From the NCBI GenBank assembly GCA_038064195.1, contig JBBTTO010000002.1, forward strand, positions 402,387 to 466,386: a stretch of 64,000 bases of DNA. The letters are read 5' to 3'. Within the stretch, counting starts at the first letter, position 1, and each line of letters begins with the position of its first letter. Below, piece by piece: positions 14,766 to 44,747 of the stretch. This stretch comes from Patescibacteria group bacterium (GTDB lineage Bacteria > Patescibacteriota > Microgenomatia > Levybacterales > UBA12049). A program made the translations under genes and the position numbers. Under the pieces are notes generated by a model. That model made no database searches. It was given only the letters and a program-made list of their open reading frames with translations, and was not told the origin of the DNA.

Positions 14766-15266
14766 ATGAAAGTATTAGTGACAGGCGCATCCGGAGCAGG
14801 AAAAACATATGTTTCATCTCAGTTAAGAGAGCTGGGTTATCCGGCTGTCGACAGTGATGATATAGGAGGGTTGTCAGGATGGTTTGACGGGCAGGGCAAT
14901 AGGGTGGACTATCCGGCAGCGGCCGGGGCTGAATTTTTGGAGAACCATAGATTTTTGTGGAACAGAAAATTTCTTGAGGAATATTTAGCGTTACACCCTG
15001 ATATCTATATCTTCGGGATGGCGGGTAATGCTTTTGAGATGCTGGATCTTTTTGATAAGGTATATTTTCTTAAAGTTCCGCCGAAAATTCAGATGGAGAG
15101 ACTGCTCCATCCGTTGCGCGCAAATCCCATGGGGCAGACAGAGTATCAAAGAAAGAATGCTGTCTGGTGGGCTCAGATGCTGGAGAGGGATGCCAAAAAA
15201 TTAGCAATTCCGATGATTGACGCGACCAAGAGTCCCAAGGAGATTTGGGAGATAATTAGTCAGTAA
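14766..15266 (+). CDS. P-loop NTPase, nucleoside/nucleotide kinase-like
   Basis: Walker A GASGAGKT at the N-terminus. The track start at 14748 overlaps the upstream stop; ATG 14766 (MKVLVTGASGAGKT) is the likely start. Confidence 0.6.
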   Translation: MKVLVTGASGAGKTYVSSQLRELGYPAVDSDDIGGLSGWFDGQGNRVDYPAAAGAEFLENHRFLWNRKFLEEYLALHPDIYIFGMAGNAFEMLDLFDKVYFLKVPPKIQMERLLHPLRANPMGQTEYQRKNAVWWAQMLERDAKKLAIPMIDATKSPKEIWEIISQ

Positions 15267-15267
15267 G

Positions 15268-15480
15268 TTTTTGTTCATACTTTTGAACCGCCAAAAGTAT
15301 GCAAAAGCTCGTGAGCTAGTGAGCGGTCACTAAATTTTCTCCTTCGTTAGTCGGGGGAATTCGGCCCCCTCATCCACACGCTGCGCTCGGTCTGGAATCC
15401 CCCTGACAACTCAGTCGAAAATTTTTAACGTGCTGCGCTCAGCGCTCACAATAAAGCACGCAAAGTGGCGAAATTAGGAA
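15268..15480 (+). ncRNA. intergenic structured element, copy R3 of a 4-member family (putative novel ncRNA)
   Basis: P1 hairpin CATACTTTT-gaaccgcc-AAAAGTATG, then CAAAAGC. P2 helix GTGAGC (15304-15309) pairs with GCTCAC (15443-15448). Long-range helix gTCGGGGGAATT (15343-15354) pairs with AATCCCCCTGAc. The 3' end GGCGAAATTAGGAAC resembles R1. Confidence 0.45.
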
Positions 15481-21896: not shown

Positions 21897-23099
21897 ATGA
21901 ATTTAGCTATTAGGATGCGGCCGCAAACACTTAAGGACTTCGTCGGGCAGGAAGAGCTCGTCGGACAAGGGAAATTGATCAGACGAATGATCGAATCGGA
22001 TAGTTTAAGTTCGATAATTCTCTGGGGGCCTCCGGGGAGTGGCAAGACGACACTTGCCAGTATCATTGCTCATGAGACAGATAGTGACTTCCATATGCTC
22101 AGTGCCGTCTCAACCGGCAAAGAAGATCTCCAAAAAATCATCAAAGAAGCTAAAGACCAGACGCTTTTTAAAAAGAAAACCATTTTGTTTTTAGACGAAA
22201 TTCACAGGTGGAATAAAGCCCAGCAGGATGTATTACTTCCTTACGTTGAAACTGGTTTGATCACCCTCATCGGCGCCACAACTGAGAACCCCTCATTTGA
22301 AGTCAACAGTGCGCTCCTCTCAAGAAGTAAAGTTTTTGTACTCAAATCCTTGACTCCTGAAAATCTGCATACAATTATTACTCGTAGTCTTAAAGACACT
22401 GAAAAGGGTTTGGGCACGGCGAAAAAAACTATCAGTAAAGTTGCTGAGGAATTATTGATACGGCTCTCCGGCGGAGATGCGCGGGTAGTCCTCAATGCTA
22501 TTGAGATGGCGGTCACGAATTTTTCAGATAAGAAGATTGATGAGAAAATCGTTCAGGATATTTTTCAAACCAAAACAGCCGGCCTCTATGACAAGAAAGC
22601 TGATGAGCACTACAATATCATCTCGGCATTTATCAAATCCATGCGGGGATCAGATCCCGATGCGGCTTTATATTATTTAATGCGGATGCTTGAGAATGGT
22701 GAAGATCCCAAATTCGTTGCACGCAGAATGGTAATTTTCGCCTCAGAGGACATCGGGCTAGCGGACAGGGGAGCGCTTATCCAGGCCAATGCGGGATTTG
22801 ATGCAGTCCATAAAATAGGTATGCCTGAGTCTCAGCTCATCCTGGCGCACATTTGTTTGTATTTATCTACCACCAAAAAGTCCCGAAGCGTCCCGAATGC
22901 CATGGGGAGGGCAAAAGATGCTGTATATCAGTACCCCAACGAACCAGTACCTCTGCATTTGCGCAATGCTCCGACTAAACTGATGAAAGAGCTTGGCTAT
23001 GCCAAAGACTATCAGTGGAGTGAGGAAAAAGTCGGGCCGAAAGGCGACCTCGGTTTCTTACCCGAAAAGTTAAAGGGGAAGAAGTTTTATGAAGAATAA
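21897..23099 (+). CDS. rarA: replication-associated recombination protein A (AAA+ ATPase RarA/MgsA)
   Basis: Walker A LWGPPGSGKTTLA, Walker B LFLDEIHRWNK, and the MgsA C-terminal domain. Confidence 0.9.
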   Translation: MNLAIRMRPQTLKDFVGQEELVGQGKLIRRMIESDSLSSIILWGPPGSGKTTLASIIAHETDSDFHMLSAVSTGKEDLQKIIKEAKDQTLFKKKTILFLDEIHRWNKAQQDVLLPYVETGLITLIGATTENPSFEVNSALLSRSKVFVLKSLTPENLHTIITRSLKDTEKGLGTAKKTISKVAEELLIRLSGGDARVVLNAIEMAVTNFSDKKIDEKIVQDIFQTKTAGLYDKKADEHYNIISAFIKSMRGSDPDAALYYLMRMLENGEDPKFVARRMVIFASEDIGLADRGALIQANAGFDAVHKIGMPESQLILAHICLYLSTTKKSRSVPNAMGRAKDAVYQYPNEPVPLHLRNAPTKLMKELGYAKDYQWSEEKVGPKGDLGFLPEKLKGKKFYEE

Positions 23100-23280
23100 G
23101 TTTTTTCTGTACTTTTTCCCGCAAAAAGTACCAAAAGCTCTCGCCCTGTCTTCCTCAATGCAGAAAAATATGATTCGCTCATTAAAAGTTAGTGCTATTG
23201 ACTTGCAACTTTTACCCTTCAGGTCATTCTCTCATCATATTTTTCTAGGCTTTCGACGCGAACGGGCGATCATAGGAACC
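23100..23280 (+). ncRNA. intergenic structured element, copy R1 (putative novel ncRNA family)
   Basis: Starts 1 nt after the rarA stop. P1 GTACTTTTT-cccgc-AAAAAGTAC, then CAAAAGCTCTCG. P2 CGCCC (23143-23147) pairs with GGGCG (23264-23268). P3 TAAAAGT-variable loop-ACTTTTA. About 85 % identical to R2 in the conserved blocks, with compensatory changes. Confidence 0.5.
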
Positions 23281-23311
23281 TTATAAAAAAACGATTCTTT
23301 ATTAAGAGGAG

Positions 23312-26849: not shown

Positions 26850-27022
26850 ACCCCTAATAGCAGTTTGTTTGTAGGGGAGAAACCCCATGGGGTTGTGTTG
26901 GGGGAGAAAAACGGGTATAATGGGTAAATAATATAGGACTCTGCTGAGTTCAGCAGAGTTGGCAAGATCTTTCAAGGGAGTCACCCCGCAAAGGATTGTA
27001 TGGCGGGGAGACACCCTTTTTT
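26850..27022 (+). promoter_or_regulatory. structured typA leader / divergent eno-typA control region: nested GC hairpins, TATAAT, and a terminator-like hairpin plus T6 ending 3 nt before the typA ATG
   Basis: GGGGTTTCaCCCCTa...tAGGGGaGAAACCCC (14-bp composite stem), cgggTATAATggg, CTCTGCTGagttCAGCAGAG, CACCCCGC-aaaggattgtatg-GCGGGGAGACACCC-TTTTTT-aat-ATG. Confidence 0.35.
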
Positions 27023-29452: not shown

Positions 29453-29965
29453 ATGGACGAAGACAAAGTACAGGACGCTGAAGTCATTGACGAGAAGCCC
29501 CTCAGTCAGGATTTCCCCGGCATAGAAGATGTCCCCACAAGTAGTATCGTCAAAGATAGCGGTGCGACAGGGGATGCGGCTATCCTCCTTAATCTTGAGG
29601 AAATGATCAAAAACTATATCCAGAGTCTGGATAAGCTGCGTGAGGAAAAGAAGAAAATCGGGGAGATGCTGGAGGACAGCTTCGTCAATAATCCTGTCTA
29701 TCGCGAAAATGCTGAGAAGGCCAAAGAGGCACTCAAGGTCAAGGCCACGACCCGTCAGCAGATTGCCAGTCAGCCATCAGTTATCGCTCTCTCCCTGAAA
29801 GTGAAAGGGCTCAATTCTGATATCAAAGAACGACAAGTTGCATTGTCTGATTACTTACTCGAATATCAACGCCTCAGTGGAGCCAACGAGATCGAAGATG
29901 CCGAAGGTCAGATCAGAGAAATTATCAATTCTGCCAGGCTTATCAAGCGAACTGCCAAAAAATAG
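29453..29965 (+). CDS. hypothetical acidic coiled-coil protein
   Basis: 170-aa ORF with no recognised domain. Confidence 0.45.
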   Translation: MDEDKVQDAEVIDEKPLSQDFPGIEDVPTSSIVKDSGATGDAAILLNLEEMIKNYIQSLDKLREEKKKIGEMLEDSFVNNPVYRENAEKAKEALKVKATTRQQIASQPSVIALSLKVKGLNSDIKERQVALSDYLLEYQRLSGANEIEDAEGQIREIINSARLIKRTAKK

Positions 29966-29992
29966 ATCTTCTCGAATTTATTTAATTTAAGG

Positions 29993-30180
29993 TTTTTTCT
30001 GTACTTTTTTCCGCAAAAAGTACCAAAAGCTCTCGTCCAGTTTTGCTCAATGCAGAAAATGGCGACTCGTTCATTAAAAGTTACGGCCTCCACTGAGTTT
30101 CGCCTTTCAACTTTTACCCTTCGGGTCATTCATTCGCCACCATTTTCTAGGCTTTCGCGGCAAGTGGACGATCAGAGGAG
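29993..30180 (+). ncRNA. intergenic structured element, copy R2 (closest paralog of R1)
   Basis: Same P1 hairpin (loop tccgc) and CAAAAGCTCTCG. P2 CGTCCA (30036-30041) pairs with TGGACG (30164-30169), compensatory relative to R1. The P3 stem is conserved with a different, longer loop. The indel pattern breaks any common reading frame. Confidence 0.5.
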
Positions 30181-30469
30181 TTTATTATATGAAAAATGAT
30201 TTATTCAGCTGGTTTTCAAAAAACTCTTATATGTTTCTTACGGGATTTTAAGCAGGCTCTTATACATGAGTAATATGATCTAGGTCATAGAACTTGGTGG
30301 AATTTGGAGGTAAAGTAATATAACAGGTTAAGGAGTTTGTCCACCATGACTTACTTTTCGCCTTAGATCATTTGATCTGCGGCTCAAAGAGCGTTCAATT
30401 GGCGGACTTAAGACTCTCTAATTCTGATTTCTAGCAAAATCAGAAAGAGACTCTAAAGGAGGTGAGAAT

Positions 30470-30646
30470 ATGGCAGGTAAATCAAAACGAGGCTTTGCCT
30501 CAATGTCTAGTAGTAAGCAGCGAAGTATCGCCAGTAAAGGCGGTAAAGCAGCGCATGCCAAAGGGACAGCGCATGAATTTACGAGTGATGAGGCTCGTAA
30601 AGCAGGGCGTAAAGGTGGAATCGCACGACAACGAAAAGATCGCTAG
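30470..30646 (+). CDS. KGG-repeat general stress protein (YciG/con-10-like), 58 aa, below the track's 60-aa cutoff
   Basis: MAGKSKRGFASMSSSKQRSIASKGGKAAHAKGTAHEFTSDEARKAGRKGGIARQRKDR; strong RBS aaaGGAGGtgagaatATG. The overlapping track ORF 30462-30698 is in another frame and looks spurious. Confidence 0.55.
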   Translation: MAGKSKRGFASMSSSKQRSIASKGGKAAHAKGTAHEFTSDEARKAGRKGGIARQRKDR

Positions 30647-44469: not shown

Positions 44470-44660
44470 ATATATTCTTCTAAAAACGTGCTTTTTAGAA
44501 CAAAGCGCGTAAATAAATTGTGAGTGAGTTGTCAGGGGGAATCCGGTCCTTTAGTGGCCGAAGGGGGAGGACAATCCTCCCGACAACGAACGAACAATTT
44601 TAGTGCGACTTCGCAAAGCACGCAGTTTTGTACACTTTTGCTGCCACGCCCTATGAAATA
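44470..44660 (+). ncRNA. intergenic structured element, copy R4 (R3-like)
   Basis: P1 TTCTAAAAA-cgtgc-TTTTTAGAA (44478-44500), then CAAAGCGCG; GTGAGTGAG; GAGTTGTCAGGGGGAATCCGG (reverse complement of the R3 motif GGAATCCCCCTGACAACTC); AAAGCACGCA shared with R3. Boundaries approximate. Confidence 0.35.
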
Positions 44661-44747
44661 GTAGTCCCTTGAGGAAAAGTGCAAAGAAAATCTTTTCCAA
44701 CAAAAAAGCTCACACTTTGTGAGCTTTTAAGCAGAAAAACCTAGTGC

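Follow-up and report, generated by a model that had tools for sequence, protein, structure and literature searches.

A structured intergenic element beside a KGG stress-protein gene of a Patescibacteria genome is one copy of a dispersed hairpin-plus-rod family

Introduction

Within a 64,000-nucleotide (nt) stretch of a Patescibacteria genome (contig JBBTTO010000002.1 of assembly GCA_038064195.1), hereafter the window, an element that we call R2 lies between a gene for a hypothetical protein and a gene for a KGG stress protein, and the locus raises the question to which of the two genes, if to either, the element belongs. The initial annotation of this DNA described R2 as the closest paralog of another element of the window, R1, and proposed that it could be a stand-alone small RNA (sRNA), a 3' untranslated region (3'UTR) element of the gene at 29453-29965, or one portion of an extended regulatory 5' leader belonging to the stress gene. 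Here we report that R2 is a real, structurally conserved element of about 190-220 bases and a member of a family that is gained and lost between relatives. Judged by the loci compared, it is inserted beside the leader of the stress gene and separate from it, and it may be a stand-alone sRNA or a 3'UTR element of 29453-29965.

Results

R2 is a structured paralog of R1

When the segment 29960-30200 was compared by blastn with the whole window, R2 matched R1 (23100-23277) with 77.7% identity over 188 nt (E=4e-40). All the blocks that had been listed as kept between the two are present when they are aligned, namely P1 (GTACTTTTT/AAAAAGTAC), CAAAAGCTCTCG, TCAATGCAGAAAA, TCGYTCATTAAAAGTTA, ACTTTTACCCTTCRGGTCATTC, TTTCTAGGCTTTCG and CGATCAKAGGA. 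The compensatory changes ascribed to P2 are also present, as the closing helix CGCCC/GGGCG of R1 reads CGTCC/GGACG in R2 and several pairs of the GCAGAAAA... helix are altered on both sides, and the different P3 loop turned out to come from 10 nt inserted into the loop that AAAAGTT/AACTTTT closes. The element was thus correctly placed between the hypothetical gene and the KGG gene, and its location at 29993-30180 stands, but not its exact bounds: the core spans 29992-30171, ending with the closing helix, and both the homology to the R1 tail and the insertion boundary extend to ~30212. The boundaries were set by comparison with the empty site of locus L121, where R2 would begin after ...TTTAAGG and end before TTTTCAAAAAA. 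R2 is laid out as follows.

29992-30212, plus strand: the whole inserted unit, a 5' module followed by a long rod and an A/U-rich tail (covariance-model match 29992-30188, 243.9 bits)
29988-29993, plus strand: the junction motif TAAGGT directly 5' of R2 (sequence inspection)
29992-30030, plus strand: the 5' module, in which P0 GUUUUU (29992-29997) pairs with AAAAGC (30025-30030) and P1 pairs 30001-30009 with 30015-30023 around the loop UCCGC (alifold)
30024-30032, plus strand: CAAAAGCTC, between P1 and the rod, the most conserved linear motif of the family, its invariance among the scanned loci being partly forced by the search pattern
30033-30171, plus strand: the long rod, with the closing helix UCGUCC (30033-30038)/GGACGA (30166-30171), a helix 30052-30066/30136-30152, an apical hairpin 30075-30082/30109-30116 and a cUUCGg mini-hairpin 30118-30125
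30172-30212, plus strand: the tail UCAGAGGAGUUUAUUAUAUGAAAAAUGAUUUAUUCAGCUGG, with a GAG able to extend the closing helix and an internal ATTATA, which is TATAAT on the minus strand

Folding of R2 gave z=-3.8, none of 200 shuffles being as good, and the consensus fold of R1 and R2 alone already holds six compensatory pairs. The fold was then supported by six R1/R2-type sequences (R2, R1 and the copies of loci L061a, L127, L122 and L132), on which it comprises P1, the closing helix, a 15-bp helix, the apical hairpin and the small cUUCGg-type hairpin; of its 44 pairs, 16 show double compensatory changes (6 distinct sequences). With five distinct sequences of this type, 94% of the cells are paired and 13 pairs covary, as against 2-4 for slid partners, and none of 500 shuffles matches. 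The blocks conserved between R1 and R2 are the loops and junctions of this fold, and the stems covary.

Family-wide, the P1 hairpin carries the same signature. Over 47 family members its covariation score is 0.171, compared with 0.040 for shuffles and at most 0.051 for slid partners, and covariation is found both at its base and at its top (pairs 17-42, 18-41 and 26-33 show 3-5 pair types). For P0, pairing is seen in only about half of the members. Against the 5'-module model built on the 47 sequences R2 scores 59.3 bits (E=3e-15).

At the junction, Microgenomatia-type copies have TAAGNT or WAATAAG, the TAAGNT box lying 6-7 nt ahead of the P1 base, and in R2 the TAAGGT might serve as a -10-like box. 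At the other end, the tail could be read either as a U-rich end in the sense direction or as the -10 box of an antisense transcript, the minus-strand TATAAT (30191->30186) lying just outside the rod. A reading frame of 20 codons at 30191-30253 on the plus strand, MKNDLFSWFSKNSYMFLTGF, spans the R2 insertion boundary and is probably fortuitous.

The element travels with neither neighbouring gene

The locus around R2 contains the following features.

29453-29965, plus strand: the upstream gene (hyp), encoding a 170-amino-acid (aa) hypothetical protein widespread in Patescibacteria
30213-30289, plus strand: a promoter-like block proximal to the KGG gene, 80.5% identical to L121 1973-2049 and similar in L122 and L132
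30290-30469, plus strand: the window-specific part of the KGG leader, with an 8-bp hairpin (30423-30444) and a ribosome-binding site (RBS, 30455-30464)
30470-30646, plus strand: the KGG stress-protein gene, 58 aa (Pfam PF10685, E=1.2e-9)

The hairpin that had been noticed ahead of the KGG gene was located (TCTGATTT-CTAGCA-AAATCAGA), and the RBS (AAAGGAGGTG) and the 58-aa reading frame at 30470 were confirmed. The untranslated stretch of 290 nt said to follow R2 shrinks to ~257 nt before the KGG start codon once the tail to ~30212 is counted. No sequence similar to 30290-30469, hairpin included, was found in the fetched loci or elsewhere in the window, whereas the block at 30213-30289 recurs in relatives and may be the promoter of the KGG gene. 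This block holds a palindrome, TATGA-TCTAGG-TCATA at 30274-30289 on the plus strand, with a near-identical TATGATCTGTGTCATA in L121, which could be an operator for the stress gene.

If R2 were a part of the KGG leader or of the upstream gene, one would look for it in relatives together with one or the other, and their loci compare as follows.

L121 (hyp 89% identical): hyp-KGG spacer 166 nt, no element
L130 (hyp 86%): hyp-KGG spacer 180 nt, no element
P0029 contig: hyp-KGG spacer 149 nt, too short for the element (judged by spacer length, not by DNA search)
L122 (hyp 75%): hyp-KGG spacer 477 nt, an R2-type copy that begins immediately 3' of the hyp stop codon
L132: hyp elsewhere; an R2-type copy flanked by a crp-like gene and by the KGG promoter block, in opposite orientation to both genes

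Synteny had been suggested as a way to find the partner of the element, and the answer is that it travels with neither gene, its presence, absence and position varying among relatives. As L121, L130 and P0029 are without it and L122 and L132 carry it in differing placements, R2 is an insertion that is gained and lost. Compared with L121, it represents an insertion of ~220 nt into the palindrome AAGGATTTTTTCAAAAAATCCTT, upstream of the KGG gene's own conserved promoter-like block and in a spacer that is otherwise 150-180 nt long. The proposal that R2 is part of a long 5' leader of the KGG gene therefore finds no support: the three loci without the element keep the hyp-KGG arrangement, the proximal block 30213-30289 and the RBS, and the L132 copy is flipped. 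The position of R2 upstream of KGG here and in L122, together with that of another R2-type copy upstream of KGG in L132, speaks for such a leader, but other copies adjoin unrelated genes, and we consider this explanation very improbable.

The same mobility of position is seen at other genes. An R1/R2-type copy lies before rarA in L061 and after rarA in the window; upstream of typA the window lacks a copy, and in L061b, L123 and L124 copies occur there at three different sites. Elsewhere, elements of the R1/R2 type follow rarA, an mscL-like gene or a CAP-domain gene, or precede typA. Five of the six R1/R2/R3-type copies examined begin 0-1 nt after the TAA or TAG of a co-oriented gene, in a WAATAAG context, and the C-terminus of RarA differs between the window (...FYEE*) and L061 (...FYKKDD*), which together suggest that the element can supply the stop codon of the gene upstream.

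Upstream of typA, three genomes have in common a unit (window 26900-26965, plus strand; L123 1490-1540; L124 1850-1900) of GGTATAATGG followed by AAUAAUAUAGGACUCUGCUG-loop-CAGCAGAGUU(UU), before or after which family members are inserted. The unit resembles a promoter with a leader hairpin or attenuator behind it.

Four copies in the window

Four family members are present in the 64 kb, R1, R2 and R3 on the plus strand and R4 on the minus strand. The 5'-module model finds exactly three strong plus-strand members (R3 at 15264, R2 at 29988 and R1 at 23096) and the diverged R4; R3 was first detected through the covariance model of R1 and R2, by its 5' part at 15267. The copies other than R2 are these.

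23100-23286, plus strand: R1, the closest paralog of R2, beginning at the base after the rarA/mgsA stop codon and filling a convergent spacer
15267-15480, plus strand: R3, with the same 5' module and a different rod, beginning immediately after a TAA stop (5'-module model, 64.6 bits)
44482-44683, minus strand: R4, similar to R3 but diverged, with 35 nt inserted in its P1 loop and with U5 directly after the closing helix

Members share a layout of a U run, the hairpin P1 (GUACUUUUU-NCCGC-AAAAAGUAC or a variant), CAAAAGCUC and a long rod. The conserved 5' module is ~45 nt long, ..UACUUUU(G/U)-NCCGC-(C/A)AAAAGUA.. and then CAAAAGCUC, and the rod starts within a few bases of it and is closed by a GC-containing helix; R2 has both. 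The motif after P1 varies as CAAAAGTTC in L061a, CAAAAACTC in L132 and CAAAACTGC in R4. The rods of R3 and R4 differ from that of R1 and R2, the R3 rod containing UCGGGGGA...CCCCCU...GGAAUCCCCCUGACAACUCA.

The 3' tail of R3, GUGGCGAAAUUAGGAACUAU, matches that of L061b, where it leads straight into the typA start codon. Upstream of R4, at 44700-44744 on the minus strand, the sequence UAGGUUUUUCUG..AAAAGCUCAC-AAAGU-GUGAGCUUUUUU resembles the flanking motifs of the family around a short ordinary terminator, without P1 or rod, and may be a minimal or ancestral form of the family.

A 5' module common to several phyla

One genome per species was scanned with the pattern CCGCNAAAAGNNNNCAAAAGCTC, from which the 5' arm of P1 was left out, and 110 loci were obtained. 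In 41 of them a 5' arm complementary to the 3' arm is present, where by our estimate chance would give far fewer than one case; the remaining matches are mostly fortuitous ones within the coding sequence of a Bacteroidota gene, which judged by eye only resembles a tRNA-dihydrouridine synthase in translation. True members were found in Saccharibacteria, Buchananbacteria and other Patescibacteria, in Rhodohalobacter (Balneolota), in Pedobacter, Olivibacter and Saprospiraceae (Bacteroidota) and in two proteobacterial or campylobacterial metagenome-assembled genomes (MAGs). Cultured isolates account for three of the carriers (Rhodohalobacter sp. 8-1, Pedobacter glucosidilyticus DSM 23534 and Olivibacter domesticus DSM 18733), and many carrier genomes hold several copies. 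The rod follows the module directly in every copy, is imperfect and 75-200 nt long, and is conserved inside a lineage and unrelated between lineages. A metagenome scan for the R1/R2-type rod gave three loci, L127 being the one new variant.

No gene accompanies the family. Among the reading frames of at least 70 aa within ~3.5 kb of the 41 copies we found no conserved neighbour, the clusters that did form being spurious open reading frames (ORFs) over the element itself. Because the genes downstream of family members are unrelated to one another, a riboswitch is ruled out. Rfam 15 gave only two tRNAs for the window at the gathering threshold and only chance miRNA matches for 29900-30520 at E<=10; for 18 loci with family members it returned rRNA, tRNA and DUF805b only, and for one Rhodohalobacter copy at E<=10 no match. 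Collections of phages, plasmids and viral contigs contained only chance matches without the hairpin, the literature searched by topic and by sequence string yielded no relevant description of a P1-rod element, and promoter and terminator scans called nothing at R1, R2 or R3.

Several single copies are recorded here for their own sake. A contig binned as 'uncultured Gammaproteobacteria' (L035, 2600-2800) carries an element much like R3/R4 that shares their inner motif and the tail CACAAUUUNUUUACGC, and may be misbinned Patescibacteria sequence. In a Saccharibacteria MAG (L052, 6005, plus strand) a member stands at the end of an rRNA operon, beginning 77 nt downstream of the 5S rRNA gene. Five Saccharibacteria copies (L012, L033, L056, L073 and L085) have an extra small hairpin, UUCUUUUCCAAAGAA, ~30 nt before P1, which, read on the reverse strand, would give a hairpin and after it a tail that is U-rich in part. 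In L132 (4168-4214, plus strand) a weaker P1-like hairpin, GUACUUUCU-GACG-AGAAAGUAC, followed by CAAAGCUU, stands directly before the full element, as tandem 5' modules.

Discussion

The comparisons above show that R2 belongs to a dispersed family of structured intergenic elements, that its insertion is polymorphic among relatives and that it is independent of KGG. We propose, with somewhat less than even confidence, that this gained-and-lost element acts as a 3'-end, terminator or insulator module with P1 as its recognition handle. The transcript, the function and the mode of spread that we infer are these. Transcription would run in the sense direction, either continuing from the hypothetical gene by read-through or starting at the TAAGNT box, and the transcript would fold into P1 and the rod, with an A tract on the 5' side of the rod and a U-rich run on its 3' side (GAG can lengthen the closing helix of R2, and UUUAUUAUAU comes after it). 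As a stable 3' end, terminator or insulator the module would part the upstream gene from the separately controlled KGG gene, and P1 would be the handle for a putative trans-acting factor that processes or spreads the element. The sense direction is suggested by the copies between same-direction genes, which are co-directional at R2/L122, R3 and L061a and flipped in L132, and by the U5-U9 directly after the GC-rich closing helix in six of nine Rhodohalobacter copies and the U5 of R4, and likewise by the TAAGNT box ahead of P1. The flipped copy of L132 fits a role that is independent of orientation, such as that of a two-way terminator or insulator.

Several results weigh against this proposal. 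A simple terminator scan does not flag R2, the copies R1, L122 and L127 are without a U tract, and a terminator role leaves the near-invariant sequence of P1 across phyla unexplained. As for spread, R1 and R2 are only 78% identical, so that no recent burst of transposition is visible, and no transposase, terminal inverted repeat (TIR) or clear target duplication was found. As for the strand, A.C mismatches outnumber G.U pairs by 25 to 10 in Watson-Crick-only folds of 46 members, by 5 to 2-3 in the R1/R2 type and by 4 to 0 in P1, and the reverse-strand consensus folds better in three lineages; raw folding energies favour the reverse strand in 38 of 41 members, a difference that is gone after composition-matched shuffling, where the z-scores of the two strands are equal (z = -4.5 vs -4.6). 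The wobble statistics point weakly to the antisense strand, in conflict with the U tracts and the co-orientation with genes.

Taken by itself, the ratio in helices family-wide is ~2.5 A.C to 1 G.U on the strand that carries the U tract and is co-directional with genes, the opposite of what is expected of a sense RNA.

A broader form of our proposal is possible, though we would rate it as rather unlikely. P1-rod elements would be a new class in Patescibacteria, Balneolota and Bacteroidota, in which the near-invariant 45-nt hairpin is the handle of a putative trans-acting machine and the lineage-specific rods are the functional or programmable part. The candidate machine would be either a mobilising enzyme with single-stranded DNA or RNA as its substrate, or a complex that binds or processes RNA, and R2 would then be a domesticated copy that supplies a 3' end close to the stop codon and insulates the stress gene.

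The strongest of the competing explanations is that R2 is a stand-alone gene for a trans-acting sRNA of a sibling set, on either strand, in which P1 would be a protein-binding or stabilising handle and the rod loops CUCAAUGCAG, UCAUUAAAAGUUA, GGUCAUUC and CUAGGCUUUCG would contact targets. The wobble asymmetry agrees with an antisense RNA, and the conservation of loops over covarying stems, in paralogs as diverged as R1 and R2 and yet structurally constrained, is of the kind such a gene would have. Boxes resembling a -10 element stand at fixed distances on both strands (TAAGGT before P1 and the minus-strand TATAAT), U tracts end the copies of Rhodohalobacter and Buchananbacteria and R4, and at many copies the upstream gene is divergent, hence a promoter of its own would be needed. 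However, the scans found no -35 element and called no promoter, there is no terminator after R1 or R2, and neither candidate targets nor a chaperone are known. In addition, the rods are wholly different between lineages while P1 is fixed, which is unusual for sRNAs that act through a seed, and four copies per 64 kb of a ~1-Mb genome is a high density for regulators. We regard the sRNA gene as an unlikely explanation.

Alternatively, R2 could be primarily a mobile element at the DNA level (a REPIN, a transposable element of the miniature inverted-repeat kind (MITE) or an IS200-type PATE), whose hairpins are single-stranded DNA structures for a transposase or recombinase encoded elsewhere and whose RNA fold is incidental. 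The variable presence and position between relatives and the flipped copy are as expected of such an element, and the abutment of five of six copies on a stop codon, with the altered RarA C-terminus, looks as if the TAA had been supplied on landing. Nearly all pairs are Watson-Crick, with no sense-strand excess of G.U, the folding z-scores do not distinguish the strands, and a P1 sequence kept across phyla is what one typically sees when an enzyme and the site that it recognises are transferred horizontally together. The empty site of L121 is a palindrome with a single GGATTTTTTC, and R2 is flanked by GGTTTTTTC and GGTTTTC, an ambiguous candidate for a target repeat; this direct repeat is not reproduced at R1 or L061a. 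TIRs of the MITE kind are lacking, as the 5' end of R2, TTTTTTCTGTAC, and the reverse complement of its 3' end have no common repeat and only a T-run/A-run complement of 6-7 nt, and there is no second P1-like hairpin at the other end. No transposase, reverse transcriptase (RT) or integrase ORF recurs within ~3.5 kb of the 41 copies, plasmids and phages gave no match, and the copies within the genome are old (78% identity) with a structure kept by compensatory change, which indicates selection, not decay. We find this explanation distinctly doubtful.

The weakest explanation, a small protein encoded by a 49-aa ORF at 30050-30199 or by the 20-aa ORF at 30191-30253 behind a GAGGAG 8 nt before its ATG, has a negligible chance of being right: the ORFs exist, but a 10-nt indel makes the reading frames of R1 and R2 diverge, the substitutions are paired compensatory changes in stems, and nothing in R1 corresponds to the 20-aa ORF, for which the homologous part of L121 lacks a start codon.

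Known classes of element were considered in turn and rejected. For derivatives of IS200/IS605 (PATE, TnpB omega-RNA) no neighbouring ORF recurs, and each element has one P1 module with a weaker reverse-strand echo of the same palindromic hairpin. For a retron, a diversity-generating retroelement, an RT-linked non-coding RNA or a bridge RNA there is no enzyme ORF around the 41 copies, the neighbours in the window being rarA, a histidine phosphatase, hyp170, KGG and typA. The rod ends CUCUCGUCC and GGACGAUCA are not the RYYYAAC/GTTRRRY core sites of an integron attC. The consensus fold has an apical multi-hairpin junction and no 6S match was obtained at E<=10, which set aside 6S RNA, and a palindromic operator site does not fit a conserved P1 loop over a covarying stem base. 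Signal recognition particle RNA and group II intron domain V were rejected as well.

Among systems described elsewhere, close ones include the REP/BIME and REPIN sequences of Proteobacteria, mobilised in trans by RAYT, which are likewise dispersed in intergenic DNA, often at gene 3' ends, as many diverged copies of hairpins with no gene in cis. They act on the 3' ends of mRNA, through stability or termination, a role that is only proposed for the P1-rod element. In contrast to REPs, which are GC-rich palindromes of 20-40 nt, and to REPINs, which are symmetric doublets of these, the P1-rod element is 190-220 nt long and asymmetric, with an A/U-rich 5' hairpin and a lineage-specific rod; its module is common to several phyla, and no RAYT was seen in the 64-kb window, nor any recurrent ORF near the 41 copies. 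Correia elements of Neisseria, ERIC/IRU of enterobacteria, RUP and BOX of pneumococci and RPE of Rickettsia are closer in size (~100-200 nt), form long hairpins, are gained and lost between relatives, and are co-transcribed with neighbours to which they can bring promoters, terminators or RNase sites. These have TIRs and defined target duplications, whereas the P1-rod element has no TIR and an ambiguous GGTTTT(TT)C repeat at one copy, and its copies are old and structurally constrained.

The likeness to two-way intrinsic terminators lies in the A tract (CAAAAG), the stable hairpin, the U-rich run and the position at gene ends and between convergent genes. The P1-rod stem is, however, 60-90 nt per arm with conserved internal loops, is preceded by an extra hairpin of conserved sequence, and in several copies, R1 among them, has no U tract. 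Sibling sRNA families such as Qrr, LhrC and FopS of Bacteroides have paralogous copies per genome that share a module and vary in the remainder. Compared with these, the P1-rod copies of the candidate phyla radiation (CPR) are without a defined promoter or terminator and without a known chaperone or targets, and are much denser. 6S RNA is similar in length (~180-200 nt), largely rod-shaped and present in two copies in some genomes, but P1-rod elements lack the central bubble and terminal stem, have an extra 5' hairpin and occur four times in 64 kb. Finally, attC sites in CALIN arrays are imperfect long hairpins repeated along the chromosome right after the stop of a co-oriented gene, whereas P1-rod elements are flanked by housekeeping genes and their conserved part is a local 5' hairpin.

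The general kind of element, structured intergenic repeats such as REP, ERIC and Correia, is known, whereas the asymmetric hairpin-plus-rod with a module that crosses phyla is absent from Rfam and from the literature searched. R2 is taken off the list of candidate riboregulators of the stress gene and becomes instead one copy of a P1-rod family dispersed between the genes of ultra-small bacteria from groundwater and of members of unrelated phyla. CPR/Patescibacteria genomes are ~1 Mb and tightly packed, and still the window spends ~0.8 kb on four copies that are kept in shape by compensatory change. The cultured carriers among Pedobacter, Olivibacter and Rhodohalobacter make the question of the P1-rod element directly testable. 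If confirmed, the family would provide a new and easily searchable RNA or DNA motif for annotating the intergenic DNA of CPR bacteria, possibly a new element mobilised in trans with a putative enzyme, and a handle on how transcription units are ended and insulated in organisms whose terminators and promoters are poorly known.

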